Assembly (NCBI GenBank): GCA_040954595.2
Contig: CM082585.2
Span: 5,171,808-5,235,807, forward strand
Direction: 5' to 3'
DNA from: Balanoglossus misakiensis
Lineage: Eukaryota > Animalia > Hemichordata
DNA: 64,000 nucleotides
A program made the position numbers and the translations under genes. The notes below the pieces were generated by a model, which had not been told where the DNA came from, did no database searches, and was given only the letters and a program-made list of their open reading frames with translations. Of the stretch, positions 22,245 through 64,000 are shown in pieces. Numbering within the stretch: the stretch's first letter is position 1; each line of letters begins with the position of its first letter.

Positions 22245-22403
22245 GAATGAATGAAAGAATGAATGGATGAATGAATGAATGAATGAATGAATGAATGAAT
22301 GAATGAATGAATGGATGCATGCATGCATGCATGCATGAATGAATGAATGAATGAATGAATGAATGAATGAATGAATGGATGAATGAATGAATGAATGAAT
22401 GAA
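22245..22403. repeat. (TGAA)n/(TGCA)n microsatellite
   Basis: Directly visible. Confidence 0.95.
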
Positions 22404-23398
22404 TCTATTTGTTAATTACTAATACGATATTTTTCTGTGAAATGTGGTCGTTATCAGTGCGCGCAGTGATGATGGCGGCGGTGTTGGTGGTGGTGAAGAC
22501 AATGGTCTGGACTACATATTAAGCATGCAACTAGGCAACTAGTCTGGTCCCCTGCCCCAATCCAACCGCTGGCTGCGCTACGCTAGAGGCTGTGTGCGTG
22601 GTCAAGGAAGTGCTCGATGATTTGAAACTTCTGCCACTAGGGGCGCTGTTATTTTGAACGGAAGTCTGGGTCATACATCAGCATACATAGACGTTGAATC
22701 GGTAAGGGGTGGATCATTTGAAGTGAAGGGAGGAGGGGGGTCTGATACATTTTTGCACAAGAAAACAGGATCTAAGCAATTATCAATAAAAAAATTCAGC
22801 CAGAAAAGGCTTGAAAAATAAAAAAAGATTTGGTGAAAGAAAAAAAAATATTCCATCAAAAATTACTTTCTGGAACACATTTATTCATTTTCCTTGAGCA
22901 AACTTTTGGTGACTCAGAAATAACATTCACAGAAAGAACTTTCCATTAATATATATAGGTCTTTGGTTGTAAAAATATAGTTTGACCAAGAAACTTGCAA
23001 TAAAAACATGTTGTAACCCTCATTTAATATTGGAATATGCACATTTGTGCGTCATGGAAGTTGTCAAACTGTGATTGTCAAATAATTTTATATCAGAGAG
23101 TGTGATTTTTATATAATCAGCGCTAACAAATGCATTTTTGTCCTTTAATATAGAGAAGTTCACCAGTGTACAAGGCCAAGGCAATTAGAGTAATCCACTG
23201 TTCAACCAATCAGATTGCTCAAGGCAATTGGCGAAATCCCATGTTTAACCAATCAGATTGTTCCACACAATCAGCTAGAGTAATCCACAGTTCAACCAAT
23301 CAGATGTCATATTTTGTCGAATGGAGTAAGTTCTGCTCACTGGCACAGGGACCAGCCCGGCCATGTTGTCTGCGATTGGCATCGATGCTTGTCACCCT

Positions 23399-23608
23399 TC
23401 AAACTACATCTTCATCCTGGGAGTCAGGATCATCTTGGGATGTCAGCCTTTGCAACTCCTCTGCTTCAACCTAAATGAAAGAAAACAAAAATTATATATT
23501 CTAAATGCAAATTTATGCTGGCTGTGTGTATATGTGTGTATGTATGTATGGTATGTATGTTATGTTATGGTATGTATGTATGTATGTATGTATGTATGTA
23601 TGTATGTA

Positions 23609-23641
<33 letters not shown>

Positions 23642-28615: not shown

Positions 28616-28740
28616 GCATTTGCCAGAGTTGGCCAGCAAGACTATTCAAAGAACTAAATGTTTTACTTTTATTGACATTCTCTAGTCTCCTCTGGCATTG
28701 ATCTTTTCGAAATCTGGACATTTTATCCTCGGCAGACAGA

Positions 28741-31700
28741 ATGGCCACTGCAGCGCCATACGAAGACAAACCACAGGTTGGACTCTGGGAGAAATTCTTG
28801 ATTGACATGAGCAAAGAACTGACCGACGAGGAACTGAAACGCGCCAAAGTCGCCGCGAAAAAAGCCATCGGTGCCAAGGGCTTCGAAGAGATCACCGACT
28901 CCTTGGCTTTTTTCAGGGCTCTGGAGAAAGGAGGCTACATCCACGATGACGACACACACTATCTAGAAGACATCTTCGAGAGCATTCAAGTGAAAAATGT
29001 ATTGGAGGAACTGAGTGAGTACAAGAGAAAGAGGGAGGAATACGTGAAGAGGAGGAGAGAGATTGCGAACAGGCGCAATGTGGATTTTGTGGGACGAGAA
29101 TCGTATCTGAAAGAAGTGATAGACAAACTCCAGAAGCCGTCGGAGACAGTGACTTGTGTAAGCATCTGTGGTCTTGCTGGAATGGGGAAAACAGAACTGG
29201 CTCTTGAAATCTGCGCAAGGATGGACTGCAGGTATGATGGACAGTCTAATTCTGTACATGTACCAGTAGTAGTGATCTATAATGACTACCACTATGACAC
29301 TTTGAAAGTCCAGTAACATAATCTCCAACTTCTGGCTGTTGTCTGTATATCTTTGTGTTGGGTATCAACTTTGGTTCCTTGTTCTACTCTGTAAAACATA
29401 AAGAATTCCTCAGTATTTGCGTTGTTCTTTTTTCCACAGCCATTTTGTAATAATCACCAGAGAAAACAATGGGTTGGACTGAACCATGGTGGTGAAAGGG
29501 TTAATAATCAAACTACAGCATTGTTGACATTATTGGGGTGGATTGTACAGTGGACTACATTTTTACCGATGAAGATGGCCGGGGAGGGGGCTGGGAAAAT
29601 ATTGAGTACACCTGGGATAGCTACAGTTGGATTTATAGACTGGGCCAGCTGTTGTAGCTATTTCACTTTTGAATTCAATGTATGTAACCTTTCTGCTTTG
29701 ATTCAATTGTTATGAAATAAGAAAGTTCTTATTAGATATTCTTGTACACATCTTTATACCATGTTACATTACTATTGCTGAAACCCTACAAAATGATGAA
29801 ATAACCAGAAAAAAAGACAAAATTGATCATCTTTGACTTTCCCTTCATCACTTTATTTTTTTTTTTTTTGTTATTTCCAGGGCATACTATGTTGATCTGA
29901 GAGAAAAAAGCTCTGGTCGTGAAGTTGTATTGGAAATCCTATCTGCTATTGGAATGAATGTCAGCGTTGACAGTGCAGAATTCAGTATGATAAAAGACTG
30001 GGGCAGTACATGTAAAATAGGTGAGAAATAAACTGTAATTTCTGGATAATTTACACTGAAAATGTACTTGTTCACAAATTGTGCTTAAAAATTTAGCAAA
30101 ATAACAAGAGTAAGACTGAACATGTATTGCCTGGCCATGAGGGTTCTGTACCTGTTGCTTGTCCCTTTGGGACTAAACTACCAGAATAGCTTGTATTTTT
30201 GGTAACTCACAGTCATGAGGGATTATGAATGGATTAGCTCAAGTATTGGCCAGACTGTATGTGTGTGTGTGTGGTACACAGAACAGAATACTGAAATATA
30301 AGCCAAAATTTAATTTTTCAGTGACTCAATATTACAATAACTACTCAACATACTTCAACCAGGGTCGGCTGATAAAATCAACCAAAAAAATATTCCATGC
30401 TCAAAATGTTTTCTTTTCAGATACCATAATTTTCATCGACAATGCGGATCTGATTGTTGAACCGGGCAGCTATGCATCCAATGACTTCCATAACACACTG
30501 ATCGAGCTGCTCAAGGTCAAGAACCAGAGGCTGAAGGTCATGATCACGTCTCGATACGCCCTCCGAGAAAATCTCTTTAAGTCGGTCTCCTTCAGGCAAA
30601 TAGAGTTGAAGCCGTTTGAGGTTCACGAATCGGTGAAATTGCTGCAGAAATTAGCGGCAGTCCCCGACAGGGAAGCCAAAGATCTCGCCCTCTTGACAGG
30701 CAACCTGCCCCTGGCTTTGAAGATCGTCGCGAGTCGATTGAAGGACGGCATCGTCACGGCTCAAGACATTGTGAGCATGCTCGAGCCAGACAAGCAGAAA
30801 ACCATGGCGACGCTGCACTATCCCGTGCGCGACGACATCCGCTCGACCCGGAACGAGAAACCGGTCGACCAGTGCCTGAAGTTGGTCTTCAAAGCTCTCC
30901 CCGAGACGCTGAAGATCGCCTGGCTGAAGCTGTCGGTGTTTCCCAGCTCGTTCGATCAGGCCGCCGTGACGGGCGTCCTGAAGGCGGCCGACCTGGGCAC
31001 CACCAAGCTGGAGATCCTGCAGCCGCTGGTCAGTCTCTGGAAAGTCGTCAACGCGGAGCCGGACGTGATCTTCGAAAACTTGCGCGTCGGCTTCGTCGAC
31101 AAGTACAGCCTCCACCCCCTGGTGAGGTCCTACTTGCAAGAGCGGGGCAAAGACGAGAACCTGAGCAACTTCTTCGACGAGGCGCAGCACGATTACGTCC
31201 GCTACTATGACGACCTGCTGAGGAAAAACTCCAAGAAAATCGAGAGAAATTACATGAAAGTCATGCAGTTTCTGCTCGAGAGCAACAAGACCAACCTTGA
31301 CCATTATTTGAAATTGATGGTCAAACTAAACATTTGCCCTCCGCTTGAAGGCAAAAATGACCACAAGCACCTGTCTTCGACATTCTTATTGTTCGAGCAC
31401 TATCTTGACCCGGACAGACGAATCCACATCTTTGAAAGCATGGCCAAGGTTGCTAAGGACAACGGCAAGAATCTGCAGTTCTGTTTCTTGAAGGGCTTCG
31501 AGGCAGACAGCTGGATTCCCAAGGCGCACCACCAGAAGGCCCTGCGAATTCTGCAGGAGCCTTTGCAGATACTGAAATCGCTGGAAAGTAAAGCGATCGC
31601 CAACACGGATAATTACAAACTGACCTTGGCAAGTTGCGAGTATGTGCAGGGCAGGAGCTTAGTAAAATCCAGCGAATACCAGACCGGCATAGCCTTACTA

Positions 31701-33659
31701 GAAAAATCCATGAATACACGGAAACAGGTGCTGAAAAAACACACCTTCGTGGCTCGTAACATGAACGCCATCGGCCATGCTTACCATCGCTTAGCCGACA
31801 TCGAGAATTCCCTCAAATTCCACCGAGAGGCGGTGGATATGCTGTACAGCATCGCCAAAGAAGGCATGCACTTAGATATGCCCACTTTCATCCTGAATGT
31901 GGGCACGTGCTGCCACGCCAAGGGCAATGAAGCCGCAGATCGAGGCGACGCGAAAGAAAGCGATCATTTCTATCGCGAGGCCATTGAGTATTACAACAAA
32001 GCGATCGATCTGGAGAAATCCATGAATCTCTATGGCTTGGTTAAGACCGCCGTCTGCCTGAAGAACAAAGCGCTGACCTACAGAGAGATGAAGCGATACG
32101 ACGAGGCCATGCCTCTCGCGGTGGAAGCTATGGAGATCCGCATTCAGAGGTTGGGCCTCCGACACCCGGATACTGCACGCAGTGTGTACTTCGTGGGATC
32201 CTTGTACCAGGACAAAGCAGTGGAAGCTCAAGAAAAAGAGGAAATGGAAGAAATTGCAGTAACCAAGGGTAAGATGGACCAGAGCTTTCTGAATGCCCCT
32301 ATTATATCTCCATAGTTGGTTACGTTAGTGACCCTTTGCAAATCCATATGTAAGTGCTGAAATGCTTTATATTGATAAAAAAGGGTGTGTAAATTTATCA
32401 TTAAAGCCCCATGACCTGCCAAATTTCACATATTTTTTCCTCACAATTAAACAACTCAGATCTTCTTCCTATCCTCTCAAATCCTCACCCTTAAGCCATT
32501 TTACTTGTGTTTGCCTCAGTTAGCCAACTCTTGGTGACGTACACCACGAAAGTTGTGTACTCTTTGTATGGAGGCCGGTTAAATGGGTGTGGCACCAGTT
32601 TAATATACCACTTGTTCAAATTGCAACATTACATACAGCTACCATATACCATCGGGCATGGTTTCCAAAACATTGACCATCCTCCAAACCTTTCAATTCT
32701 TTGCTATAGAAAAAGTGTGCAAGGAGTCATTTTTGAACAGAGATGAAATTTGTTTTCATGAATATTGCTATTTTATTTTTTTCTCTGTAGGCTTATACAC
32801 AGAAATTGGCGTATTTCAAATATTCATGATTTAGAAAGCACAACAACATAGGAGGTGCAAGATTTACAGGATAAACATCTTCCAATGTCTTGGACATCTG
32901 TATGTATCATTGTACGGTATGCAAAACATAACATAACTGCATATTTTGGTGTGTTTTTCACAGAGAGCCATGAGTTGTATAAGGTTGCCCTGAATTACTT
33001 CAAGCAGGCTGCTGAGATTGAGGTATCTCTGGAACCGCACAGACGCAGTATTGATTATCCGGATGTTCAGGAAGGACTCCAGAAGGTTCTAACAGCTTTA
33101 CACATGGAGAAGGAAAAGGAGATGTATGAAATGCTGTTTCTGGTACGTATGTTGATTTGCAAAAGAATTATATGGCCCTCCGTATTAAAGACACAAAAGT
33201 CTCTCTCTTGCTGCCCTTTTCCAATTAATTATGTTTGATACAAGAACCCGTTTATGTTATTCTACATCTGGATATATAGTGAATCAATGTTTGACTACAC
33301 TCACACACAACTATCCCATTTGTAGGGTATGAGAGTAAAACTCTCACCAAAATGAATAACTGGTAAACACCGATTATTCATTTTGGCGAGTTTTTCACTC
33401 TCGTATCTGCAAGTGGGATGGAAGTTGTGTGTGGTTGAACGTTGATTCACTATACCGTATATCCACATGTAGAATAACATAAACAGTGTCTTGTATCAAA
33501 CATACTTAATTTAAAACGGGTAATGAGAGAGACGCTTTGTCCCTTTAATCCCGTTTTCAGAAAGCAGCCGATCAGATGTTGGCGTCGGAGGATGGCAGTG
33601 GATCTGACAGCAGTCCTGAGGAAGACACCGAAAGTGACAAATCGGACAAATCCAATTAA
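28741..33659 (+). CDS. NLR-like STAND NTPase: DED - NB-ARC - TPR repeats, ~918 aa
   Basis: Exons 28741-29231, 29881-30020, 30421-32268, 32964-33142, 33561-33659 (2757 nt, in frame). DED pattern FLIDMSKELTDEELKRAK..FFRALEKGGYI..YLEDIFESI; FVGRE; Walker A GLAGMGKT; Walker B IIFIDNAD; sensor-1 MITSR; GNLPLAL; LSVFP; MHD-like LHPLVR; TPRs (ARNMNAIGHAY, AIEYYNKAI, HPDTARSVYFVGSLY). Confidence 0.9.
33184..33548. mobile_element. ~365 bp fold-back MITE with TTAA flanks (Kolobok-like) filling the last NLR intron
   Basis: The whole element is a long imperfect palindrome: ttaaagacacaaaagtctctctc ... gagagagacgctttgtccctttaa. Confidence 0.85.
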
Positions 33660-42013: not shown

Positions 42014-42739
42014 ATGAGTGATACAAATGAACCCAAGGAGGTAGCCATAACTGCAACCACTGCAACAACTACCAGCACCGAACCATCTACCGATTCCAAC
42101 GAACCACAGGGTAACCGTGACGTATTGAACATTCAGTTTTGCCATCCGTATTTATAGTTGTTAACCATTTTGAATGGTTTTCAAATACATGAACCATTTT
42201 GAGTGGTTTTAGAACACTTTAAGAAACAGTCACTTCTCTGATCCTACAACTTTGTCTTTAACAATTTGTTTGTCCCACAGGTCGAGATGGCAAATATAAA
42301 TTTGAAGTGTGTGAGGTCGGCTTGGTACCAAGTCAACTGCTTGGAACCGTTTTCGGTAAGGCAATTTCAAAGGAGAATGTTTAATGTCAGTAATGGATTT
42401 CATTTCTTTCCAAATGAAAAAATGGATAGGTCATTTTACTTACTAAATCTTATTATCAACTAATTATCACAAGTCCCAACCACCGTTTTTTTCTAATCCG
42501 TGACGAAAAGCCTGGTATTAACATGCTCCATATTCAAAATGTTGGCAGCAAGTTTAGCTCAAAATACTGGATTAAACCATTATACAACTTACGAATCTGT
42601 GTTGACCGTATTCCTATGGACAATATACTCCCAGAAATACACCATTCAAATTTCAGCATATTTATTTTCTTACTTTTTACAATTGTATTAATATCATGTC
42701 TCTCACTTTATCCAAGGCGGGGCACAGTTTAGGCGTTAA
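42014..42739 (+). CDS. DxNE microprotein B (64 aa)
   Basis: Exons 42014-42110, 42281-42355, 42717-42739, then a 3'-UTR intron from 42773 to ~43438: MSDTNEPKEVAITATTATTTSTEPSTDSNEPQGRDGKYKFEVCEVGLVPSQLLGTVFGGAQFRR*. TATA at ~41896 and CCAAT upstream. Confidence 0.7.
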
Positions 42740-46747: not shown

Positions 46748-47594
46748 ATGGGAGGCTCTTCCAGTACAGACGGTAACGAGGGTTCCGGTTCAAAAGGTTC
46801 CAGTGGAAACGGCAATAGTGGTAGTTCGAATACAGATACGAACGAGAGGAAAGTTGAACTAGGTGTGTATTCTCAGATGACGAATTTCAAATTTATTTTC
46901 TCTCACTCAAAACACAGACACTTTTTAAATCATGATTTATAATTCGCTTGTAGGTAACATTTGGATCATGACACCTTGTACTTCCATGCGTTACTTTGAT
47001 CAAAAGAAAAAAAGTGAAAATTCGCCATGGTTTGCCGCCACGCCTGCCATAGCGTTAACACGCCCGTTAACGCGCACGTAGCTGTAGACACAATTTTCAT
47101 AGAAACGTTTGGTGCTAGCGGTGAAATGAAATGAGCTTCTAGACTTTAGTACGATCTACAGTGTTGATCAACATAACATTAAAAAACCTCTGGCGTTGCT
47201 TTTCTCCAGATGTACTAAGCAACAATCCCTGTCTCCGTCAGCGTCCTGCCGATGGTCTTTCTGTTTCTACACGTAAGTGTATCTATATTATATACATGTA
47301 CTAGAAGCGTACAAGCAGCTACGTTGAATAGGAACAAGCGTTTAGTACATTTTATCTCGTGTCGTTTTGTACCAAATGCCGTGCTATATGATATGTAGTC
47401 AATCAAGTTTAAGCAATTCGACAGTGGACACTATCAATTCTCTATTGGACTGACAAATACTATCACCAGGGTACGTGTACCTGCTCAACATATTCATTCC
47501 TTTTTGGATATGGTCCAAGAGTTATTTAAAAGGGGGTTCCCTTCAATGAAATGACAAATACTTTTAATTTTACACAGATGGTGGTCTGCGTTAG
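46748..47594 (+). CDS. DxNE microprotein D (64 aa, MGxxxS myristoylation start)
   Basis: Exons 46748-46862, 47210-47272, 47578-47594, 3'-UTR intron 47631-47864, AATAAA 48145: MGGSSSTDGNEGSGSKGSSGNGNSGSSNTDTNERKVELDVLSNNPCLRQRPADGLSVSTHGGLR*. TATAAGA at ~46668. Confidence 0.72.
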
Positions 47595-48864
47595 AAGGAT
47601 GACGCATCTGGACAGTATGGACAAATAGAGGTATGTATTCATTGGTCGATATTTTCATGGTAAATACCTGCGTTCTCTACTATTGGCGTTAAGGTCAAGT
47701 CATCCTTATGTAAATCGCATACCCAGAAGCTATTATAAAGGACTTCTACAAAGGTCACCAAAGGTCATCAATACCTGATTTAAGTTCTATAGCGAATGAG
47801 CTGGTGAAAGGACATTTTATAAAATAACTGTGACAGTTGATTTTTGTCGTTTTCGTTGCTGCAGGTTGATCTAAAGAAATGGCGTGGAAACGCTCAAGTA
47901 AAGTGAACGTGCAGCCATGGCATACTCATCATCTTCACTTAGAAACCATTTTTGTGATTTTCTTGAATTATAATTGTCGTTTATACCGTACTGTACCTGT
48001 ATGTTAACACATCTGTAATAATTATGTTACCATCAATGTGATGTAAAATTCGCTATTTTCTTTACTCTTCAGCTGCTGTGAATTTCACCTGTAAGAACAT
48101 GATTTTCTGCATTAGAGGTTGATGTGTTTAATACAATTGTATTCAATAAAATAACAGACATTCTTGAACCCGTCGTTATTTTCGTGTGTTTTTTTTATAC
48201 GAGCTGCCGTATGGCCACATTGCATTTGTTTTATTTTGGACCATGCTCGTTTAGATGCCCAACGTAAACACCTCGAGGACAGGTAAATACTTTGGGAAGT
48301 AAAAAAACTGTTTAGCTTAGAGACAACACAAACAGTACGTTGTCATTGGCTGCTGGCCAACAATTAGAGAGCTGGAACGACACAGACGGACATTAGTCTA
48401 ATTATGGAAATCAAAGTAATGCTCGTGATTTACACATGCGACATGAATACCCTTATAGTTTTGGTGGAAATCATACTTTGTTAGTTCTACAGACACAGCT
48501 CCGGCAGATAGGCACACATTTTCAACATCAGAAAAACAACAGTGGTACATTAAAATATTAGGGTAAAGAATTAATTGACATTATACAGTGATTTTCAATG
48601 GAATTGCAATTCTTAACCGGGTAAATGTCACATGATAGGGATTCTTGTGAATGACTCACGTAAACAAAACCATCGGTCATCACGACTAAAAAAAGAAAAT
48701 CGTATGACATCACAGACACAAAGAAAAGGATTGACCAATAGAAAGGGAGAACGCGGCAGGGCAGGTAAAAAGCACGACATCGACAAAAACTCTTGCAGGT
48801 AAACTTGCGAAGAACATTTTGGTAGATGACGAGCATCTGTGAGGAGCATCTGAAGTCAAAAAAG

Positions 48865-49567
48865 ATGGGTAATTGGTGCAGTGGTGGCGACGCCAACGAA
48901 GGTTGTCCACGAGGTTGCAAATACCAACCATCAAACACAGGTTCCTGCGTAGATTCTAATGAACCGAAGGGGACGTACACACGACCACCAAATTCAGGTT
49001 TGCAAAATGAATAACGTATATGATAGTTGTGACAGATGAGAAGACGACCATCACTTGAACGTATATTGCAAATAACTGAGTGTTCTGGTTCACAAGTAGT
49101 TTAACCTTCCATTGCGAGATTTTGTGGAGAACGATCAACGTTTAGCAGAAAAACTCAAAGTATATTTAAGTCTATCAAATAACACATAAAACTTTAAAAT
49201 GCTGGCGGGTGACATTTTTTCAGAACCAATAAATTCGACTGATCATAAATATACTAATACCAGGTGTTTCTTTTGTTCTTACAACACAATTTCTCATTTT
49301 TACAGAGCAAATAGATTTATCCTTGTACGATGGAGGGCTTTACGATAGTTCAGGTACGTAGGCAGCGTTTACTACGCACATAGTTTTAGGTTTGGTCAGA
49401 TGGTCTTACATCCAGGCTAGTTTTATGACATTTCCAATCATGGTAACATTTCTTAAGAAACAATCAAACCTTATGAAGTGACAGTTTCTCCATTTTCTTG
49501 CAAGTTTTTTGCAATGAGTAAAGTCTACAATTCTTCTTTGTTTGCAGGAAACTACTATCGCCGCTAG
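48865..49567 (+). CDS. DxNE microprotein E1 (66 aa, MGNWCS myristoyl/palmitoyl-type start)
   Basis: Exons 48865-48997, 49306-49353, 49548-49567: MGNWCSGGDANEGCPRGCKYQPSNTGSCVDSNEPKGTYTRPPNSEQIDLSLYDGGLYDSSGNYYRR*. Confidence 0.72.
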
Positions 49568-51548
49568 TGCTTCAGGTAACACAGGTAAGACAATAAAATT
49601 AAAATATAGATAATCCGTCAAATATTTGATTGGTGTGCAACCAACGATGTATTTAGTTGACATCAATGGTTCTTTTGTTTAAACTGTGATTCAAATTAAG
49701 ACGAGTTGGACAGTCTTTGGACAGTCAGTTACAATGACGAATTGGGGATTCCCCCTGCAGACGAATGACTATAATCTAAAAGTATATTAATCATTTTGGA
49801 ATAGTAATTTTGACTTTCGATGGGCTTTTAAATATATATACCATTTAACACTGTAATATCCAAATTTTGTTGTTGTTTTCATAGTGCTAGGAAGTTCTGT
49901 TTTTCCTTTGCTTTGGTGAGAAATACTGGTTTGGTCACAAATGCCATAATCTTTCTTACTGTGTGCTGTGATGCTCCATATTAGCTCAGAAATTCTTCTT
50001 CAGAAAATATTGCGTCCAATTCAAACAGAATAGCATGCACATGGATATTGTACACAAAATGGTGATTGGAAGCTCAGGCCAGTTCAGTGTCCAAGAATAA
50101 ATTGTCGTTTGTTTGATTTTTTTCACGTGGCCACCCGGCAGAAATTGGCTGATCTCACATTTCCACGCGTACGGTAGCGCTGCTTAAATTTGCATAGGAA
50201 ACCTATATTTTTTACTTTTGAAAACAATGTAGTTCAAGAAAAACGCCTTGACCCATATCCGTTGACACAGAGATGTAGTAAATATTTTGAGTAATTTGTA
50301 TTTCATAGAATACCACTGACTTTATATGTACATTTTCAGTTCTTATATACAGTGATTTTGTTTTGTACATTATATGAATGGTACTAAGGTTTCATTGTAC
50401 ATGTATTTCAAAGTTGACATGTAATATCTTTAGTGTGAAATAGTTCACAGGTTAGGTCTGACCATGATGAGTTGCCAATATAGACATTAGTTTTAGTCTT
50501 CCATGGTAACTGTACATTTTTAACTTAATCAATCTAATAAAATACACTAGTTGATAATACACACCTGAAGATGCGTGATCTTTTGTTAATTACATTCTTT
50601 GCAAATAGCTTCACACACAGTCCAGAAGGTTAACAAGAAAATTGATCTTTTGGCGCTACTAAATATGCACCCAAGACACATAATACATAATGGAATGACA
50701 TTTTTGGGATATCCACCTGATATAGACGTGTGCCATTTTCCCCACGAAAACGCAGACAACAGATTACCAGCGTGTATTCCAATGGTGAAGCGAAAGTGTG
50801 CCACGTGAACTATCTATACACACTACTAGCAGCTGATAACATTGCTGCAATTGTTTTTCAAAATACAATGGCAACAAAATCTGTCGTGTGTGCATGGTGT
50901 GAATCTGAGGCGATTAAAGAGAAAAATTTAGCTGCCAACTCGGTGTCTTTGGCCAATAGTACTATTGGCACCATGAGAAAGTGTGCGCATTGAGTCGATA
51001 TTACTTGAGAACATCGAACACTTAATTACTAAATTGTAGACAAATTTAGCAAATTATACACAGCTGACCTTTGACCGAGAAACTCATTCCGTAAAGGTCA
51101 TGCGCAGAAATTCAAAGGGCATATATAGGTTTAGCTTAAACAACATTTAGAGCTTTAAATATACCATTACACTAAAATCTTATAAACATTCAGAACTTGT
51201 TAAAAAGAATCACATAACCAAGAAATATTTAAATCAATATTTAAGTCAAGCGCCTTCAATTGTTACAAGAACGAATATTCATTGCAAGCTCGTTCCATAT
51301 ATGATTAAGTTGATGCTTCGTATGTGATACTGATGTATCATATTTGTTCTAGTTGCAAACGTCTTTAGTGGACGAATTCCCTGTCTACTTGTGTTTATAT
51401 TATTTTCAATATAAGTCAACATAATTTTTTTCAACCATAACATACATTTTTTGTTAATAATGTTTAATATTAAATTAAATGAGGCCAGAAGCCGTCATTA
51501 AGTCGTCGGGTGTTTTCAAAAGATATATTGGTGATTTCATGACTTGTT

Positions 51549-51674
51549 GGGGAATTCCAGAAATTGGCCAATGGCAATGACACACGCGCGCCGCTTCTAA
51601 GACCAATAGCAAAAATCTACGTGTTGCTCCACACTGACACACGAGATCTTGCGCAATTCCAATACTATAAATAT
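51549..51674 (+). promoter_or_regulatory. kB-like site GGGGAATTCC, CCAAT boxes and TATAAAT upstream of gene F1
   Basis: GGGGAATTCC 51549-51558, several CCAAT, TATAAATA at ~51666, about 100 nt before the ATG. Conserved in copy 2. Confidence 0.6.
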
Positions 51675-51767
51675 CGAACAAGCGTTTTGTAGAAAGTAGT
51701 TTGGTGACCACATCATCCACGACATTTGCAGAAATCTGTTTTTCCTCTCGCAAAAAAATCAAAAACC

Positions 51768-52287
51768 ATGGGCAACCAAAGCAGCAACGAGCCTCGACCA
51801 AGAACTAGCAATTCAGGCTACTACTCAACCAGAGGTTATTCGTATCCGAATGTCAGTTCTAACGAACCGAAGAAAGGTATGTCAAATTTCCGTTGAAATT
51901 ATCTTTGCCTTTTGCGCCAGTGTTACAGCGAACTCGATTCCCACGAAAAGTAAGTTCCATAACCATTTGCAAAAACCCAATCAGCCAATGCATTTTCTGA
52001 CCAACTTTTTTTTCAAATCTTATTAACAACAACTTTTTTTCTGTGTTTTTCTCAAGCTGTGCGCAAACGTCGTTACGAACCTGAAGGTGGGCATTGCGGC
52101 GACGCAGACTGTCTTGAAAGAGGTAAGTATTTAAATAAATATCACGCAGTTTTCCAAAAGAAAAGAAAATATCACGAGAAATTACCAATGTGTTTCATAC
52201 GATTCCTATCTCCTCATGGACCTCATTTTCTGTCAATGTTCTCACTGTTTACAATTTTCTTCTACAGGATTTGTTCATAACCGTTAA
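51768..52287 (+). CDS. DxNE microprotein F1 (64 aa, MGxxxS start)
   Basis: Exons 51768-51876, 52057-52122, 52268-52287, then a 3'-UTR intron to ~52721: MGNQSSNEPRPRTSNSGYYSTRGYSYPNVSSNEPKKAVRKRRYEPEGGHCGDADCLERGFVHNR*. Strong Kozak context accATGG. Confidence 0.75.
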
Positions 52288-53484
52288 CACATTTGGACAG
52301 GTACGTCCACGTCCTACTTTTGGCCGGTGAGTACATCAGATTACCTCATTGTTTACAGTGCACTACTTCTAAAACAACCTCCTTGATGTCTTCTCTGAAG
52401 GGAATACTCACTGTGTATCATGTCCATGCCCAAGTGGTACTACATGTATTTAAAGTCCGTATAGCTTGTTGCCAAAGCAAAATAGAGTACCGCCTTTAAT
52501 ACTGTCATGATATTATCCGGGGTCAATATTCATGTTACCTTGTGTTGCAAATACAATGCTCTGACAAAAGGCACTCGGGTCTAGCACATTCCAGCTCAGC
52601 TAAACCCTGAGGTTTTGTTGATTTATTTATAGCAGAGAGTCACACGAGAACAGATCAGAATTTTTCGTTGTGGCACTGTTAGATTTGCTCTTGCACTTAC
52701 TGTATTTCGATTCATTTACAGATTACCATATAAATTCTGAAACCGGCAAATACCTCCTCAAGCCTTCACCATCGTCTACAGTGCACAACATCATGTTTCA
52801 AGGACAAGTACTCCGTCCCAGGGAAAATCCAAGTCGTTTTAGCAAGGACGCAGAGAAACTTGTTGCAATAACCATCTTTAGTACTGTTGACATTGTCATT
52901 AATTATGTTACGTTACCATGACACCGTTGTCCAAACACTGTAATTCAACACAATGATTATTGTTTAACCACAAACACCCGATCTGTATCATTCACTGTCT
53001 ACGTCAGTACCGTGTGATACCCGCTTTTAAATATCACAGTTTTCACAGTTTAACATTAAATTACACTAATATTATTTTTTAGGCTGTGTCAATCAAGTTT
53101 TATAGTAATGTCTATACATGTTGTCAGGTCATTCTTTTACTGCCAGAGTTTTAATTGTTCACTTTCATTCCTTTGTCGCAATGTAAAATTAATTCGGTAA
53201 GGTTTTATACTAGTGTGCATGGATTTTTCACTTTTTCAAAATGAACAAAGGTCAATTCTCCCAAGGAAGTTACTCATAGTTCTTTATATGCAATACAAAT
53301 GTGTTCAATTACATGGAATGTATCCTGTTTGATTATAGTTTATCACAGTAGTATAGTGTAGGTCAATTTGCCTTACTTTTGGATGTGCAGGTAATCTGAA
53401 GTTCTGTTATTAAAATATTAATATATTGACTCGATATGTCCATTAGTTTGTATGTATGGGTGAAACACCGTAACGTTAGTAGCA

Positions 53485-53651
53485 TGACTCATTTTGACCG
53501 AGATTGGTTGGTTAACGATGATTGATAGACGAAACAGTTTTTTTTTTTTCATAAACGTTCTCACAAAAACACTGTGCATGAATCAGCTAATTCTTGTGGA
53601 AATCCCCTCATCTATTATGCACTGGAATTTACCGACCAGTAGCATGACTCA
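53485..53651 (+). promoter_or_regulatory. AP-1 (TGACTCA x2) plus kB-like (GGAAATCCCC) module upstream of gene G1
   Basis: TGACTCA 53485-53491 and 53645-53651; GGAAATCCCC 53598-53607. Confidence 0.5.
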
Positions 53652-54098
53652 CTGTTGGCGTTGATTGGCTGATCGTCCTGAATGACCGGGAGTATCTTTT
53701 AAGAATACACAAACCCTAACACACACACAAACAAACAAACAAACAAACACTTTTCAATTTACTTTTTTTCCGATGCAACGGACGACAAAAAGGATGATGA
53801 CATCGCTGGACAGAACATGAGAAAATAACCACTGAAATGCTAATACGGTTGTGCCCAGAACCTTATTGGTCGTAATTTTATTCTATCAGCCAACCAAAAA
53901 ACAACACCAGATCCCATTGGTCACAACTAAATAATAGCATTCCTCCAAAATCACACATATACAATTTTAACTTCAGGGTGCGTAGTTGTCTACCTTGAGC
54001 ACATTCAAAATCAAGACTGTCAAGTATTGGCCCAAAAGCAAATTCATCGAGTTGAACGTCTGTTGTTTTATCACCTGTACAACTTACTATTGCTCATC

Positions 54099-54404
54099 AT
54101 GTCAGCTACAGAAACTGGACTAAGACACCCACACAATGGCGTGGAAATACACTATGACGAGAGATGCGAATATATTATTTTGAGACGAAGGTCGCAATAC
54201 GACCAAGAAGACCGCCAGTATCAAGTGAAGGTAATCCAACGACATTGCTACTGTCCAAACCCCAAGCCGAGGGTGGAAACACATCGAAATCATTGGTGTG
54301 CCTACAGGCAAACCCGCCATCGTTACTCTTACAAACTGGTTCGAAGTTGTGTGTGTGGACAATTCTACTCTCCTAATCCAAACATTGATGTAAACGAGCT
54401 GTAA
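54099..54404 (+). CDS. Cys/His-rich microprotein G1 (101 aa), two internal repeats, C-terminal DVNEL
   Basis: Single-exon ORF MSATETGLRHPHNGVEIHYDERCEY...RHCYCPNPKPRVETHRNHWCAY...RSCVCGQFYSPNPNIDVNEL*. The frame is kept in copy 2, including a 3-nt indel. Confidence 0.72.
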   Translation: MSATETGLRHPHNGVEIHYDERCEYIILRRRSQYDQEDRQYQVKVIQRHCYCPNPKPRVETHRNHWCAYRQTRHRYSYKLVRSCVCGQFYSPNPNIDVNEL

Positions 54405-55491
54405 ATCACGGGTGGTGACGTTAAGGACAGGTCCCGAGAAACAAAAACTTTACAGCTGTGACGTGGTGGAGAAAAGCGTCAAAGAGCTCGCATTGGCCTA
54501 ACTGGAACGAGTGACGTCTCTGAACAACATGCGTTGGAAGATTACACAGCGACATTGAATCAAGTCACCTATGGACATGTACTTCTACACGGGACATAAT
54601 TTTCCTCATCATCAACATTCGTCGGTGAAAGATTGGCTACTGACTGATTTAATCCACACATAGCAAAATGTGTGCACCATCTAAAAAGGCAACGTTTAAA
54701 AATATCGGACACGGTAAATTCACATAAAGTTTCATTTCGCAACAGGTTTTGAACAACATGTTTTGTATTTTATTTTAGTAGTGACTTCATTCTTGAACCC
54801 GTCGTTATTTTCGTGTGTTTTTTATACGAGCTGCCGTATGGCCACATTGCATTTGTTTTATTTTGAACCATGCTCGTTTAGATGCCCAACGTAAACACCT
54901 CGAGGACAGGTAAATACTTTGGGAAGTAAAAAAACTGTTTAGCTTAGAGACAACACAAACAGTACGTTGTCATTGGCTGCTGGCCAACAATTAGAGAGCT
55001 GGAACGACACAGACGGACATTAGTCTAATTATGGAAATCAAAGTAATGCTCGTGATTTACACATGCGACATGAATACCCTTATAGTTTTGGTGGAAATCA
55101 TACTTTGTTCGTTCTACAGACACAGCTCCGGGATATAGGCACACATTTTCAACATCAGAAAAACAACAGTGGTACATTAAAATATTAGGGTAAAGAATTA
55201 ATTGACATTATACAGTGATTTTCAATGGAATTGCAATTCTTAACCGGGTAAATGTCACATGATACGGATTCTTGTGAATGACTCACGTAAACAAAACCAT
55301 CGGTCATCACGACTAAAAAAGAAAATCGTATGACATCACAGACACAAAGAAAAGGATTGACCAATAGAAAGGGAGAACGCGGCAGGGCAGGTAAAAAGCA
55401 CGACATCGACAAAAACTCTTGCAGGTAAACTTGCGAAGAACATTTTGGTAGCTGACGAGCATCTGTGAGGAGCATCTGAAGTCAAAAAAAG

Positions 55492-56193
55492 ATGGGTAAT
55501 TGGTGCAGTGGTGGCGACGCCAACGAAGGTTGTCCACGAGGTTGCAAATACCAACCATCAAACATAGGTTCCTGCGTAGATTCTAATGAACCGAAGGGGA
55601 CGTACACACGACCACCAAATTCAGGTTTGCAAAATGAATAACGTATATGATAGTTGTGACAGATGAGAAGACGACCATCACTTGAACGTATATTGCAAAT
55701 AACTGAGTGTTCTGGTTCACAAGTAGTTTAACCTTCCATTGCGAGATTTTGTGGAGAACGATCAACGTTTAGCAGAAAAACTCAAAGTATATTTAAGTCT
55801 ATCAAATAACACATAAAACTTTAAAATGCTGGCGGGTGACATTTTTTCAGAACCAATAAATTCGACTGATCATAAATATACTAATACCAGGTGTTTCTTT
55901 TGTTCTTACAACACAATTTCTCATTTTACAGCGCAAATAGATTTATCCTTGTACGATGGAGGGCTTTACGATAGTTCAGGTACGTAGGCAGCGTTTACTA
56001 CGCACATAGTTTTAGGTTTGGTCAGATGGTCTTACATCCAGGCTAGTTTTATGACATTTCCAATCATGGTAACATTTCTTAAGAAACAATCAACCCTTAT
56101 GAAGTGACAGTTTCTCCATTTTCTTGCAAGTTTTTTGCAATGAGTAAAGTCTACAATTCTTCTTTGTTTGCAGGAAACTACTATCGCCGCTAG
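55492..56193 (+). CDS. DxNE microprotein E2 (66 aa)
   Basis: Exons 55492-55624, 55932-55979, 56174-56193; differs from E1 by T25I and E45A. Confidence 0.72.
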
Positions 56194-58773
56194 TGCTTCA
56201 GGTAACACAGGTAAGACAATAAAATTAAAATATAGATAATCCGTCAAATATTTGATTGGTGTGCAACCAACGATGTATTTAGTTGACATCAATGGTTCTT
56301 TTGTTTAAACTGTGATTCAAATTAAGACGAGTTGGACAGTCTTGTGACGTGAGCACACAAGTTGGAAGTTGACGTCTTTGATAGGGAGCGGCTGTGTGGA
56401 ATTTCAAAAGTGAAAGTGACTTCACTCTAATGTCGTCTGATAAAAAATGGCAAAAACAACTGACAGAGCATGCGTGGACAAGAAAACAGGCGGGGCTGGG
56501 AGGTCAGATGATCGATCATTATAACGTCTATGTGAACGACTGAAGGTTTATTACAATAGAGTAATTTTATGACAAACAGCACACTAATTACTTTATTTTC
56601 ACGTTATTTACTTTCAGGCGTTTCGATTTACCCGAAACTTGTGACAGAGTCTACATTGTTTTAAGACCATATAAGGAGATGGTTACCATATAAGGAGATG
56701 GTGACAAAGCAGAAATCATTGGAATTCAGTTACAATGACGAATTGGGGATTCCCCCTGCAGACGAATGACTATAATCTAAAAGTATATTAATCATTTTGG
56801 AATAGTAATTTTGACTTTCGATGGGCTTTTAAATATATATACCATTTAACACTGTAATATCCAAATTTTGTTTTTGTTTTCATAATGCTAGGAAGTTCTG
56901 TTTTTCCTTTGCTTTGGTGAGAAATACTGGTTTGGTCACAAATGCCATAATCTTTCAATTTCTTACTGTGTGCTGTGATGCTCCATATTAGCTCAGAAAT
57001 TCTTCTTCAGAAAATATTGCGTCCAATTCAAACAGAATAGCATGCACATGGATATTGTACACAAAATGGTGATTGGAAGCTCAGGCCAGTTCAGTGTCCA
57101 AGAATAAATCGTCGTTTGTTTGATTTTTTTCACGTGGCCACCCGGCAGAAATTGGCTGATCTCACATTTCCACGCGTACGGTAGCTCTGCTTAAATTTGC
57201 ATAGGAAACCTATATTTTTTACTTTTGAAAGCAATGTAGTTCAAGAAAAACGCCTTGACCCATATCCGTTGACACAGAGATGTAGTAAATATTTTGAGTA
57301 ATTTGTATTTCATAGAATACCACTGACTTTATATGTACATTTTCAGTTCTTATATACAGTGATTTTGTTTTGCACATTATATGAATGGTACTAAGGTTTC
57401 ATTGTAAATGTATTTCAAAGTTGACATGTATTATCTTTAGTGTGAAATAGTTCACAGGTTAGGTCTGACCATGATGAGTTGCCAATATAGACATTAGTTT
57501 TAGTCTTCCATGGTAACTGTAAATTTTTAACTTAATCAATCTAATAAAATACACTAGTTGATAATACACACCTGAAGATGCGTGATCTTTTGTTAATTAC
57601 ATTCTTTGCAAATAGCCTCACACACAGTCCAGAAGGTTAACAAGAAAATTGATCTTTTGGCGCTACTAAATATGCACCCAAGACACATAATACATAATGG
57701 AATGACATTTTTGGGATATCCACCTGATATAGACGTGTGCCATTTTCCCCACGAAAACGCAGACAACAGATTACCTGCGTGTATTCCAATGGCGAAGCGA
57801 AAGTGTGCCACGTGAACTATCTATACACACTACTAGCAGCTGATAACATTGCTGCAATTGTTTTTCAAAATACAATGGCAACAAAATCTGTCGTGTGTGC
57901 ATGGTGTGAATCTGAGGCGATTAAAGAGAAAAATTTAGCTGCCAACTCGGTGTCTTTGGCCAATAGTACTATTGGCACTATGAGAAAGTGTGTGCATTGA
58001 GTCGATATTACTTGAGAACATCGAACACTTAATTACTAAATTGTAGACAAATTTAGCAAATTCTACACAGCTGACCTTTGACCGAGAAACACATTCCGTA
58101 AAGGTCATGCGCAGCAATTCAAAGGGCATATAAAGTTTAGCTTAAACAACATTTAGAGCTTTAGATATACCATTACACTAAAATCTTATAAACATTCAGA
58201 ACTTGTTAAAAAGAATCACATAACCAAGAAATATTTAAATCAATATTTAAGTCAAGCGCCTTCAATTGTTACAAGAACGAATATTCATTGCAAGCTCGTT
58301 CCATATATGATTAAGTTGATGCTTCGTATGTGATACTGATGTATCATATTTGTTCTAGTTGCCAGCGTCTTTAGTGGACGAATTCCCTGTCAACTTGTGT
58401 TTATATTATTTTCAATATAAGTCAACACAACTTTTTTCAACCATTACATACATTTTTTGTTAATAATGTTTAATATTAAATTAAATGAGGCCAGAAGCCG
58501 TCATTAAGTCGTCGGGTGTTTTCAAAAGATATATTGGTGATTTCATGACTTGTTGGGGAATTCCAGAAATTGGCCAATGGCAATGACACACGCGCGCCGC
58601 TTCTAAGACCAATAGCAAAATTCTACGTGTTGCTCCACACTGACACACGAGATCTTGCGCAATTCCAATACTATAAATATCGAACGAGCGTTTTGTAGAA
58701 AGTAGTTTGGTGACCACATCATCCACGACATTTGCAGAAATCTTTTTTTTTCCTCTGGCAAAAATCGAAAACC

Positions 58774-59295
58774 ATGGGCAACCAAAGCAGCAACGAGCCG
58801 CGACCAAGAACTAGCAATTCAGGCTACTACTCAACCAGAGGTTATTCGTATCCCAATGTCAGTTCTAACGAACCAAAGAAAGGTATGTCAAATTTCTCAT
58901 GAAATTGTCTTTGCCTTTTGCGCCAGTGTTACAGCGAACTCGATTCCCACGAAAAATAAGTTCCATAATCATTTGCAAAAAAACAATCATGCAGCCAATG
59001 GATTTTCTGACCGATTATTTTCCAAATCTTTTAACAACAACTTTTTTTCTGTGTTTTTTTCAAGCTGTGCGCAAACGTCGTTACGAACCTGAAGGTGGGC
59101 ATTGCGGCGACGCAGACAGTCTTGAAAGAGGTAAGCATCTAAACAAATATCACGCAGTTTTCCAAAAGAAAAGAAAATATTACGAGAAATTACCAATGTG
59201 TTTCATACGATTCCTATCTCCTCATGGAACTCATTTTCTGTCAATGTTCTCACTGTTTACAATTTTGTCCCACAGGATTTGTTCATAACCGTTAA
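58774..59295 (+). CDS. DxNE microprotein F2 (64 aa)
   Basis: Exons 58774-58882, 59065-59130, 59276-59295; three synonymous Pro-codon changes and one Cys>Ser change versus F1. Confidence 0.75.
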
Positions 59296-61061
59296 CACAT
59301 TTGGACAGGAATGCCCACGTCCTACTTTTGGCCGGTGAGTACATCAGATTACCTCATTGTTTACTGTTCACTACTTTTAAAACAACCGCCTTGATGTCTT
59401 CTCTGAAAAGAATATTCACTGTGTATCATGTCCACGCCCAAGTGGTACTACATGTATGTAAAGTCCATACAGCTTGTTGCCAAAGCAAAATAGAATACCG
59501 CCTTACTGTCATGATAGTATACGGGGTCAACATTCATGTTATCTTGTGTTGCAAATACAATGCTCTGACAAAAGACACTCGGGTCTAGCACATTCCAGCT
59601 CAGCTAAACCCTGAGGTTTTGTTGATTTATTTATAGCAGAGAGTCACACGAGAACAGATCAGAATTTTTCGTTGTGGCACTGTTAGATTTGCTCTTGCAC
59701 TTACTGTATTTCGATTCATTTACAGATTACCATATAAATTCTGAAACCGGCAAATACCTCCTCAAGCCTTCACCATCGTCTACAGTGCACAACATCATGT
59801 TTCAAGGACAAGTACTCCGTCCCAGAGAAAATCCAAGTCGTTTTAGCAAGGACGCAGAGAAACTTGTTTCAATCACCATCTTTAGTACTGTTGACATTGT
59901 CATTAATTATGTTACGTTACCATGACACTGTAATTCAACACAATGCTTATTGTTTAACCACAAACACCCGATCTGTCTACGTCAGCACCGTGTGATACCC
60001 GCTTTTAAATATCACAGTTTTCACAGTTTAACATTAAATTACACTAATATTATTTTTGAGGCTGTGTCAATCAAATTTTATATTAATGTCTATACATGTT
60101 GCCAGGTCATTCTTTTACTGCCAGAGTTTTAATTGTTCACTTTCATTCCTTTGTCGCAATGTAAAATTAATTCGGTAAGGTTTTATACTAGTGTGCATGG
60201 ATTTTTCACTTTTTCAAAATGAACAAAGGTCAATTCTCCCAAGGAAGTTACTCATAGTTCTTTATATGCAATACAAATGTGTTCAATTACATGGAATGTA
60301 TCCTGTTTGATTATAGTTTATCACAGCAGTATAGTGTAGGTCAATTTGCCTTACTTTTGGATGTGCAGGTAATCTTAAGTTCTGTTATTAAAATATTAAT
60401 ATATTGACTCGATATGTCCATTAGTTTGTATGTATGGGTGAAACACCGTCACGTTAGTAGCATGACTGATTTTGACCGAGATTGGTTGGTTAACGATAAT
60501 TGATAGACGAAACAGTTTTTTTTTTTCAAAAACGTTCTCACAAAAACACAGTGAATGAATCAGCTAATTCTTGTGGAAATCCCCTCATCTATTATGCAAT
60601 GGAATTTACCGACCAGTAGCATGACTCACTGTTGGCGTTGATTGGCTGATCGTCCTGAATGACCGGGAGTATCTTTTAAGAATACCTTAACACACACACA
60701 AACAAACAAACACTTTTCAATTTACTTTTTTCCGATGCAACGGACGACAAAAAGGATGATGACATCGCTGGACAGAACATTGAGAAAATAACCACTGAAA
60801 TGCTAATACGGTTGTGCCCCGAACCTTATTGGTCTTAATTTTATACTATCAGCCAACCAAAAATCAACACCAGATCCCATTGGTCACAACTGAATAATAG
60901 CATTCCTCCAAAATCACACATATAAAATTTTAACGTCAGGGTGCGTAGTTGTCTACCTTGAGTACATTCAAAATCAAGACTGCCAAGTATTGGCCCGCAA
61001 GTCAATTCATCGAGTTGAACGTTTGCTGCTTAATCTCCTGTACAGCTTACAATTGTTCATA

Positions 61062-61370
61062 ATGTCAGCAACAGAAACTGGACTAAGACACCCACATAAT
61101 GGCGTGGAAATACACTATGACGAGAGATGCGAATATATTATTTTGAGACGATGGTCGCAATACGTCCAAGAAGACCGCCAGTATCGAGTGAAGGTAATCC
61201 AACGACATTGCTACTGTCCAGACCCCAAGCCGATGAGGGTGGAAACACATCGAAATCATTGGTGTGCCTACAGGCAAACCCGCCATCGTTACTCTTACAA
61301 ACTGGTTCGAAGTTGTGTGTGTGGACAATTCTACTCTCCTAATCCAAACATTGATGTAAACGAGCTGTAA
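61062..61370 (+). CDS. Cys/His-rich microprotein G2 (102 aa)
   Basis: Paralog of G1. All Cys/His and DVNEL are kept, with an in-frame Met insertion; TATAAAA at ~60921. Confidence 0.72.
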   Translation: MSATETGLRHPHNGVEIHYDERCEYIILRRWSQYVQEDRQYRVKVIQRHCYCPDPKPMRVETHRNHWCAYRQTRHRYSYKLVRSCVCGQFYSPNPNIDVNEL

Positions 61371-61753
61371 ATCACGGGTGGTGACGTTAAGGACAGGTCC
61401 CGAGAAACAAAAACTTTACAGCTGTGACGTGGTGGAGAAAAGCGTCAAAGAGCTCGCATTGGCCTAACTGGAACGAGTGACGTCTCTGAACAACATGCGT
61501 TGGAAGATTACACAGCGACATTGAATCAAGTCACCTATGGACATGTACTTCTACACGGGACATAATTTTCCTCATCATCAACATTCGTCGGTGAAAGATT
61601 GGCTACTGACTGATTTAATCCACACATAGCAAAATGTGTGCACCATCTAAAAAGGCAACGTTTAAAAATATCGGACACGGTAAATTCACATAAAGTTTCA
61701 TTTCGCAACAGGTTTTGAACAACATGTTTTGTATTTTATTTTAGTAGTGACTT

Positions 61754-64000
61754 CATTCTTGAACCCGTCGTTATTTTCGTGTGTTTTTTATACGAGCTGC
61801 CGTATGGCCACATTGCATTTGTTTTATTTTGGACCATGCTCGTTTAGATGCCCAACGTAAACACCTCGAGGACAGGTAAATACTTTGGGAAGTAAAAAAA
61901 CTGTTTTGCTTAGAGACAACACAAACAGTACGTTGTCATTGGCTGCTGGCCAACAATTAGAGAGCTGGAACGACACAGACGGACATTAGTCTAATTATGG
62001 AAATCAAAGTAATGCTCGTGATTTACACATGCGACATGAATACCTTATAGTTTTGGTGGAAATCATACTTTGTTCGTTCTACAGACACAGCTCCGGGATA
62101 TAGGCACACATTTTCAACATCAGAAAAACAACAGTGGTACATTAAAATATTAGGGTAAAGAATTAATTGACATTATACAGTGATTTTCAATGGAATTGCA
62201 ATTCTTAACCGGGTAAATGTCACATGATACGGATTCTTGTGAATGACTCACGTAAACAAAACCATCGGTCATCACGACTAAAAAAGAAAATCGTATGACA
62301 TCACAGACACAAAGAAAAGGATTGACCAATAGAAAGGGAGAACGCGGCAGGGCAGGTAAAAAGCACGACATCGACAAAAACTCTTGCAGGTAAACTTGCG
62401 AAGAACATTTTGGTAGCTGACGAGCATCTGTGAGGAGCATCTGAAGTCAAAAAAAGATGGGTAATTGGTGCAGTGGTGGCGACGCCAACGAAGGTAGTCC
62501 ACGAGGTCGCAAATACCAACCATCAAACACAGGTTCCAGCGCAGATTATAATGAACCGAGGAGGACGTACACACGACCACCAAATTCAGGTTTGCAAAAT
62601 GAATAACGTATAGGATAGTTGTGACAGATGAGAAGACGACCATCACTTGAACGTATATTGCAAATAACTGAGTGTTCTGGTTCACAAGTAGTTTAACCTT
62701 CCATTGCGAGATTTTGTGGAGAACGATCAACGTTTAGCAGAAAAACTCAAAGTATATTTAAGTCTATCAAATAACACATAAAACTTTAAAATGCTGGCGG
62801 GTGACATTTTTTCAGAACCAATAAATTCGACTGATCATAAATATACTAATACCAGGTGTTTCTTTTGTTCTTACAACACAATTTCTCATTTTTACAGAGC
62901 AAATAGATTTATCCTTGTACGATGGAGGGCTTTACGATAGTTCAGGTACGTAGACAGCGTTTACTACGCACATAGTTTTAGGTTTGGTCAGATGGTCTTA
63001 CATCCAGGCTAGTTTTATGACATTTCCAATCATGGTAACATTTCTTAAGAAGCAATCAAACCTTATGAAGTGACAGTTTCTCCATTTTCTTGCAAGTTTT
63101 TTGCAATGAGTAAAGTCTACAATTCTTCTTTGTTTGCAGGAAACTACTATCGCCGCTAGTGCTTCAGGTAACACAGGTAAGACAATAAAATTAAAATATA
63201 GATAATCCGTCAAATATTTGATTAGTGTGCAACCAACGATGTATTTAGTTGACATCAATGGTTCTTTTGTTTAAACTGTGATTCAAATTAAGACGAGTTG
63301 GACAGTCTTGTGACGTGAGCACACAAGTTGGAAGTTGACGTCTTTGATAGGGAGCGGCTGTGTGGAATTTCAAAAGTGAAAGTGACTTCACTCTAATGTC
63401 GTCTGATAAAAAATGGCAAAAACAACTGACAGAGCATGCGTGGACAAGAAAACAGGCGGGGCTGGGAGGTCAGATGATCGATCATTATAACGTCTATGTG
63501 AACGACTGAAGGTTTATTACAATAGAGTAATTTTATGACAAACAGCACACTAATTACTTTATTTTCACGTTATTTACTTTCAGGCGTTTCGATTTACCCG
63601 AAACTTGTGACAGAGTCTACATTGTTTTAAGACCATATAAGGAGATTGTTACCATATAAGGAGATGGTGACAAAGCAGAAATCATTGGAATTCAGTTACA
63701 ATGACGAATTGGGGATTCCCCCTGCAGACGAATGACTATAATCTAAAAGTATATTAATCATTTTGGAATAGTAATTTTGACTTTCGATGGGCTTTTAAAT
63801 ATATATACCATTTAACACTGTAATATCCAAATTTTGTTTTTGTTTTCATAGTGCTAGGAAGTTCTGTTTTTCCTTTGCTTTGGTGAGAAATACTGGTTTG
63901 GTCACAATCGCCATAATCTTTCAATTTCTTACTGTGTGCTGTGATGCTCCATATTAGCTCAGAAATTCTTCTTCAGAAAATATTGCGTCCAATTCAAACA
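61754..64000 (+). repeat. Tandem segmental repeat, copy 3 (truncated by window end; gene E3)
   Basis: Same start sequence; colinear with copy 2 to the end of the window. Confidence 0.95.
62457..63159 (+). CDS. DxNE microprotein E3 (66 aa, Cys-poor variant)
   Basis: Exons 62457-62589, 62898-62945, 63140-63159: MGNWCSGGDANEGSPRGRKYQPSNTGSSADYNEPRRTYTRPPNSEQIDLSLYDGGLYDSSGNYYRR*. Confidence 0.72.

Follow-up and report, generated by a model that had tools for sequence, protein, structure and literature searches.

An array of small spliced genes

The window, by which we mean the whole stretch of 64,000 nucleotides of Balanoglossus misakiensis that was analysed, is animal DNA with a G+C content of about 38%. 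Apart from the genes that concern us here it contains genes for a DUF229 protein, for a sulfotransferase and for a nucleotide-sugar transporter, as well as one DED/NB-ARC/TPR gene. The frames of the last of these lie on the plus strand at 28702–32315 and encode a death effector domain, the start of an NB-ARC/STAND NTPase and TPR repeats. The death effector domain frame has a single protein match (69% identity), which is named caspase-8-like and comes from the acorn worm Ptychodera flava; this match by itself points to a hemichordate or a close ally. Two tetranucleotide microsatellites are also present, (TGAA) with about 40 copies at 22244–22404 and (TATG) with about 52 copies at 23531–23744.

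From position 48165 to the end of the window, the DNA is organised into three tandem units, with starts that are about 6.6–7.0 kb apart. Unit 1 (48165–54790) carries the gene E1 together with a sister gene, g51. Unit 2 (54791–61756) carries E2 and the sister gene g58, and unit 3 (61757–64000) carries E3 and is cut by the end of the window. All three units are read on the plus strand. A pattern search with the first 20 bases of E exon 1 gave exactly three matches in the window, where none were expected, at the three start codons (48865 for E1, 55492 for E2 and 62457 for E3).

The E genes belong to a local family of eight small spliced genes on the plus strand between 42014 and 63176, which are, in order, g42, g44, g46, E1, g51, E2, g58 and E3. 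The first exon of every member encodes two x-N-E motifs (in one case N-Q), which are 21–29 residues apart. For g51 (exon 1 at 51768–51876) and g42 (exon 1 at 42014–42110) this exon is supported by splice joints and for g46 (exon 1 at 46748–46862) by one joint; g42 and g46 both show the twin N-E motifs. Exon 1 of g58, the copy of g51, lies at 58774–58882. When the exon-1 peptides of E1–E3, g51, g58, g46 and g42 are aligned, the spacing between the motifs is 21–25 residues, and apart from the initiator methionine only the N and E residues in the two motifs are invariant. The spacers between the motifs are otherwise unrelated among family members and cannot be aligned residue by residue.

Each E gene encodes 66 codons in three coding exons, with an exon 1 of 133 nt, an exon 2 of 48 nt and an exon 3 in which the stop codon is complete after 20 nt. 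To examine the genes in reads we used the contigs of three public runs (X1, X2 and X3), which were all made from a single sample that may also have been used for the assembly. X3 is not recorded as RNA, though it behaves as RNA. We take it to be RNA-like because it yields a spliced contig without depth in the introns. This contig joins four exons of E3 on the plus strand. Exon 1 (62457–62589; 44 codons and one base from the ATG) is joined to exon 2 (62898–62945), exon 2 to exon 3 (63140–63176, with the stop codon at 63157–63159) and exon 3 to exon 4 (63584–64000), so that the joints are 62589|62898, 62945|63140 and 63176|63584. All joints are of the GT..AG type. Exon 4 is untranslated and runs off the window; the contig extends about 306 nt past the window end. 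Hence, the model of three coding exons proposed in the earlier note is borne out at its predicted borders, and a fourth, untranslated exon has to be added to it. X3 also gives spliced models for four more small genes on the plus strand, upstream of and inside the units.

A second X3 contig, which carries the E3 form of the sequence, stops at the exon border, and its three extra letters do not match the intron, as expected for spliced RNA. The reading frame of E3 is intact. A low-depth RNA-like contig also covers the region ahead of the E start codon for about 800 nt (61700–62495 and 54683–55314), which suggests either a transcription start far upstream or read-through from the preceding gene.

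The copies differ at their 3' ends. At 49722, E1 lacks 375 bp whose equivalent in E3 is 63315–63689. In E2 and E3 this segment contains the end of intron 3, the acceptor and the initial 106 nt of exon 4, which is untranslated. Therefore, the 3' end of E1 must be processed differently. A further frame of 157–158 codons is open in both complete units (53931–54404 and 60894–61370, plus strand). Between units 1 and 2 it shows 7 synonymous changes, 12 replacements, two double changes and an in-frame 3-bp indel. This candidate has no Pfam match and its RNA-like depth is low.

Seven replacements within 67 bp of E3

Exon 1 is where the E copies part ways. Compared with E1, codons 14 to 36 of E3 (62496–62562, plus strand) contain seven changes that are private to E3, and all of them replace an amino acid. 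Three remove a cysteine: C14S (TGT>AGT at 62496), C18R (TGC>CGC at 62508) and C28S (TGC>AGC at 62538). The other four are V29A (GTA>GCA at 62542), S31Y (TCT>TAT at 62548), K35R (AAG>AGG at 62560) and G36R (GGG>AGG at 62562). Our codon comparison reproduces every one of the changes that had been listed before, and with them the count of seven nonsynonymous and zero synonymous differences. Exons 2 and 3 of E1 and E3 are identical.

Hence, the exon-1 sequence exists in two forms. The cysteine form is found in E1 (48865–48997) and E2 (55492–55624), both on the plus strand, and has cysteines at positions 5, 14, 18 and 28. Cys5 is common to all three copies and is the only one that E3 has. E2 carries two private replacements, T25I in exon 1 and E45A. 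The codon 25 base of E2 (55565) is not among the variant letters of the aligned contigs, and contigs drop simple variants.

Are the seven bases real? Against the possibility that E3 is an error of sequencing or assembly, or that one allele was taken for a third copy, its form is found as a contig of its own in two of the three runs. In X1, a contig of 127 nt matches E3 with zero differences at a depth of 33.6, next to a contig of the E1/E2 form at a depth of 69.7. In X3, the depths are 48.9 for the E3 form and 63.5 for the E1/E2 form. X2 contigs show the E1/E2 form only, and contigs drop minor variants. Unique flanks in X1 have depths of about 40–50, and therefore the E3 form is present in approximately a single copy. 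The joint of the E1-specific deletion has a similar depth in the reads (32.3), as expected if E1 and E3 are represented by one copy each. In favour of an artefact one could say that all read sets stem from a single sample, possibly the assembled one, and that regions common to the three copies have depths of about 97–104 in X1, slightly below three times the unique depth. We consider an artefact extremely improbable. The seven bases are real, and the sequencing errors that the earlier note had named as one possible refutation do not account for them.

The changes are strongly clustered. In a three-way alignment of the copies, E3-private substitutions occupy 7 of 133 columns in exon 1, 0 of 68 columns in the remaining coding sequence and 7 of 1657 non-coding columns. 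The concentration in exon 1 is significant against all non-coding columns (Fisher P 2.4e-5) and also against introns 1 and 2, where 3 of 502 columns are changed (P 0.001). In simulations, half of the 14 E3-private changes fell inside 67 bp with a probability of 3e-5. Replacement divergence (dN) of E3 is about 16 times the divergence of the flanking non-coding DNA. Thus, the earlier description of flanks and introns as nearly identical holds up, and divergence in the introns does not equal that in the exon; equal divergence would, by the note's own standard, have refuted it. Another E3-private change, the nearest one outside the island, falls within the intron at 62613, 51 bp further on.

The excess of replacements is less telling. 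Seven replacements and zero synonymous changes, on 102 nonsynonymous and 30 synonymous sites, give a Fisher P of 0.16, and allowing for a transition bias changes this to 0.10–0.15. Across all variants of the test (P 0.10–0.17) the ratio is not significant. Hence, the ratio of 7:0 does not stand on its own as evidence for a dN/dS above one, contrary to what had been proposed.

None of the seven changes affects a column that is invariant in the family. It had been noted that the changes in E3 spare the region of the initiator and the two D-x-N-E motifs; this agrees with the family alignment, in which N and E of the motifs are invariant in seven of seven members. At the same time, all three spacer cysteines have changed. 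The simulated probability of this is 0.0037–0.026 if the cysteines were lost and 0.0036–0.005 if they were gained, for a test that was chosen post hoc. With this proviso, the concerted switch of three cysteines that had been suspected is non-random in either direction (P 0.004–0.026). Weak pointers suggest that the cysteines were gained by E1 and E2 rather than lost by E3, because the spacers of all five other members are free of cysteine (g51, g58, g46, g42 and g44, which represent four gene types), and because the change from CGC to TGC is a CpG transition.

Possible roles of conversion, mutation and selection in the array

The array is a mosaic of homogenised and diverged tracts. Units 1 and 2 differ by 140 substitutions, which are distributed very unevenly: the E gene is diverged by at most 1%, g51 by about 5% and the stretch at 54000–54260 by about 9%. 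Thus, the E segments, which are nearly identical amid more diverged units, have been homogenised recently, and the units themselves are older. The homogenised tract that the E2 and E3 segments have in common begins at a sharp edge (61232–61234). The 240 bp upstream of this edge (54268/61234) hold 20 substitutions, and the 597 bp downstream of it hold none. The stretch with about 9% divergence (54000–54268 against 60963–61234) ends at a 3-bp indel, which appears to be the border of such a tract. Non-coding changes that are private to E1 are clumped as well.

Against this background the island in E3 could be neutral. It could be a short conversion tract whose source was a diverged E-type sequence (another copy or an allele), or it could be a patch that escaped when the remainder of the E segment was homogenised. 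In either case it would lie within a disordered and weakly constrained spacer on which no positive selection acted. Several observations fit such a history. Divergence between units is patchy, with sharp edges and with non-coding tracts of 5–9%, and the island, with its divergence of 5.3% (7/133), is not exceptional by the standard of the older inter-unit divergence, under which 6.65 changes would be expected (P for seven or more = 0.50). The ratio of replacements to synonymous changes is compatible with neutrality (P 0.10–0.17), and spacers are wholly different among family members. The nearest further E3-private change (62613) is intronic and just 51 bp away from the island, and interlocus gene-conversion tracts are usually shorter than 500 bp (PMC3790853).

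Other observations do not fit. The rest of the window contains no sequence from which the island could have been copied; the longest match is 12 nt. At a likeness of at least 90%, only two forms of the island segment occur among the contigs listed, and the approximately single-copy depth of the E3 form in X1 does not point to a further copy as a possible donor. If the island were an unconverted remnant, two tract ends would have to lie within about 40–50 bp of it. Moreover, a neutral mosaic leaves the change of all three cysteines to chance (P 0.004–0.026). Overall, we regard a neutral origin as the main rival explanation, though as less likely than not. Conversion, which had been offered originally as the alternative to selection, has some probability: the array is a mosaic of tracts with 5–9% divergence beside tracts with none, and the island is diverged to the same level.

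The sister genes provide a further argument against a neutral spacer. Between g51 and g58 (51768–52326 and 58774–59334) there are three synonymous changes and one replacement, and the introns are about 5% diverged. In spite of this divergence exon 1 contains no replacement at all, which indicates purifying selection on the sister spacer. Since g51 and g58 are conserved and have the same exon-1 architecture as the E genes, family spacers are therefore not simply unconstrained. The contrast between the E genes (7:0 replacements to synonymous changes) and the sister genes (1:3) is significant (Fisher P 0.024). The sole replacement between g51 and g58 is a switch between cysteine and serine, too (TGT/AGT, codon 55).

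One could also argue that the changes, all or several of them, arose together in one clustered mutational event such as error-prone repair synthesis. Adjacent double changes do occur in the non-coding DNA of the array (63908–63909 and 48505/48507). The island, however, contains seven changes of mixed types (two T>A, two T>C, C>A, A>G and G>A) spread over 67 bp, which is far above the usual size of multi-nucleotide events, and neither the sparing of the motifs nor the changes of the cysteines would be explained. We regard such an event as very unlikely.

It is less likely still that the exon-1 stretch does not function as plus-strand coding sequence, and that an antisense gene or an RNA structure matters instead. 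Open frames of 151–180 codons do lie opposite exon 1 in E1 and E3. However, the antisense frame of E1 is not that of E3, and stop codons close each of them in the other copies. The GT..AG splice joints are on the plus strand, and the sister gene is under purifying selection in the plus-strand frame. The predicted folding of exon 1 is no better than that of shuffled sequences (z 0.10 and −0.60).

Our preferred reading is that selection likely produced or retained the island because it favoured a spacer variant without cysteines, in a protein that is predicted to be N-myristoylated and S-acylated. We base this reading on the clustering of the changes, the pattern of the cysteines, the sparing of the motifs, the conserved sister gene, the intact and expressed reading frame and the lack of a donor in the window or of an extra copy in the reads. 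It is weakened by the non-significant replacement ratio, by the mosaic nature of the array and by its reliance on a single genome. On balance, we see about an even chance that it is correct. Selection could have acted in two ways. It may have driven the changes after the last homogenisation, or it may have shielded an older divergent patch from homogenising conversion, since the two forms would differ in what they do. Host-pathogen conflict had been suggested as the driving force, and nothing in our analysis supports it.

A putative lipid-anchored protein and its analogues

Currently, the E family is an orphan with no detectable relatives in the libraries that we searched. Word-index protein searches gave no match, either with the full-length E product against proteins of 36–116 residues or with the alignment of seven exon-1 peptides against proteins of 17–77 residues. 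Pfam returned zero families for the first member, and the sole row among the seven members had an E value of 2.5. The ESM Atlas and a string search of the literature gave no match, and a profile search of the PDB gave zero matches at E values up to 1. A metagenome scan gave one locus; its 11-residue match is preceded by stop codons and shows no similarity beyond it, and we dismissed it as a chance match to the search pattern. Resemblances to TRAF-type, ITAM-type and other linear motifs were also rejected, as the sequences did not fit the consensus.

The E product is probably disordered, judging from its composition. Its N-terminus is polar, with 77–82% polar or disorder-promoting residues, and when we looked there for a signal peptide or hydrophobic leader, it was absent. 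AlphaFold2, run on single sequences, models the exon-1 fragments with low confidence. For E1 the model contains a hairpin (residues 18–20 and 28–30; pLDDT 63.8, pTM 0.38), and for E3 it is without secondary structure (pLDDT 60.7, pTM 0.13). The modelled presence of a hairpin in the cysteine form and its absence in E3 would be a weak hint at a functional difference. A Foldseek search against the PDB gave no match at an E value of 0.001 or better (best E 5.4).

Six of the eight family members (E1, E2, E3, g51, g58 and g46, but not g42 and g44) match a PROSITE-type pattern for N-myristoylation. We picture the E product as a disordered, lipid-anchored mini-adaptor, in which the twin N-E motifs would be constrained elements for binding a partner. 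The cysteine form of E1 and E2 may carry several acyl chains, or it may hold a metal or a disulfide. E3, with only Cys5, would then be anchored more weakly or differently. By analogy with known lipid-anchored proteins, the number of cysteines in the spacer could set the placement of the protein at the membrane, and E1/E2 and E3 may be functionally distinct paralogues.

The closest parallel that we see to such an anchor is eNOS, in which Gly2 is myristoylated and Cys15 and Cys26 are palmitoylated, with a spacer between them (PMC11678294). The cysteine form of the E product similarly has Gly2 in a myristoylation-type context, followed by cysteines 5, 14, 18 and 28 in a flexible N-terminus, and if the analogy applies, the cysteine count would determine how strongly and how reversibly the protein binds membranes. 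Dually acylated N-termini with Met-Gly-Cys motifs are also characteristic of Src-family and G-alpha proteins. Unlike eNOS, Src-family and G-alpha proteins, to which it has no sequence homology, the E product has 66 residues and no catalytic or folded domain, and its acylation is predicted only.

The kind of event that we describe is already known, whereas the E family itself is an orphan. In snake-venom toxin genes, accelerated segment change in exons has been termed ASSET (Doley, Mackessy and Kini 2009, PMC2711939; it is also the topic of PMC2474615). The situation resembles ours in that small, recent duplicates have a short exon segment that is radically changed between nearly identical introns and flanks, and in that functionally important residues are replaced as a block. 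There are also differences. ASSET toxins are secreted, disulfide-rich and have known targets, whereas the E product has no signal peptide, a predicted intracellular lipid anchor and no known target. Furthermore, ASSET swaps a segment for unrelated sequence, whereas the changes in E3 are point substitutions in a segment that can still be aligned.

The second class of analogues concerns paralogues that are homogenised along most of their length. In a model for RHD and RHCE, Innan (2003) reportedly described a divergent island that is kept by selection against homogenising conversion, and the morpheus family (Johnson et al. 2001) is said to have a divergent coding stretch within otherwise homogenised paralogues. 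The E genes likewise differ strongly in one short coding stretch only. The cases of RHD/RHCE and morpheus rest on population and multi-species data, whereas E is known from one genome.

It is tempting to go further. The genes may encode lineage-restricted, lipid-anchored mini-proteins with two invariant N-E motifs, and positive selection may act on a module of three cysteines that is present in some paralogues and absent from others, as a switch for acylation or metal binding. The proteins would then represent a novel type of rapidly evolving membrane adaptor, with a possible link to the nearby death-domain/STAND immune genes. We regard this extended proposal as speculative and unlikely.

If the island is merely a conversion patch, then the locus is a case of ordinary concerted evolution in a tandem array. 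In addition, the window contains an unannotated family of eight tiny genes without detectable relatives, in a deuterostome invertebrate lineage. If selection is confirmed, the E genes would be a compact natural experiment, in which expressed paralogues have the same promoter, the same introns and 59 of 66 residues in common. With three of the four cysteines removed in E3, one could then test directly, in an otherwise constant background, what multi-site S-acylation or a small cluster of cysteines does.
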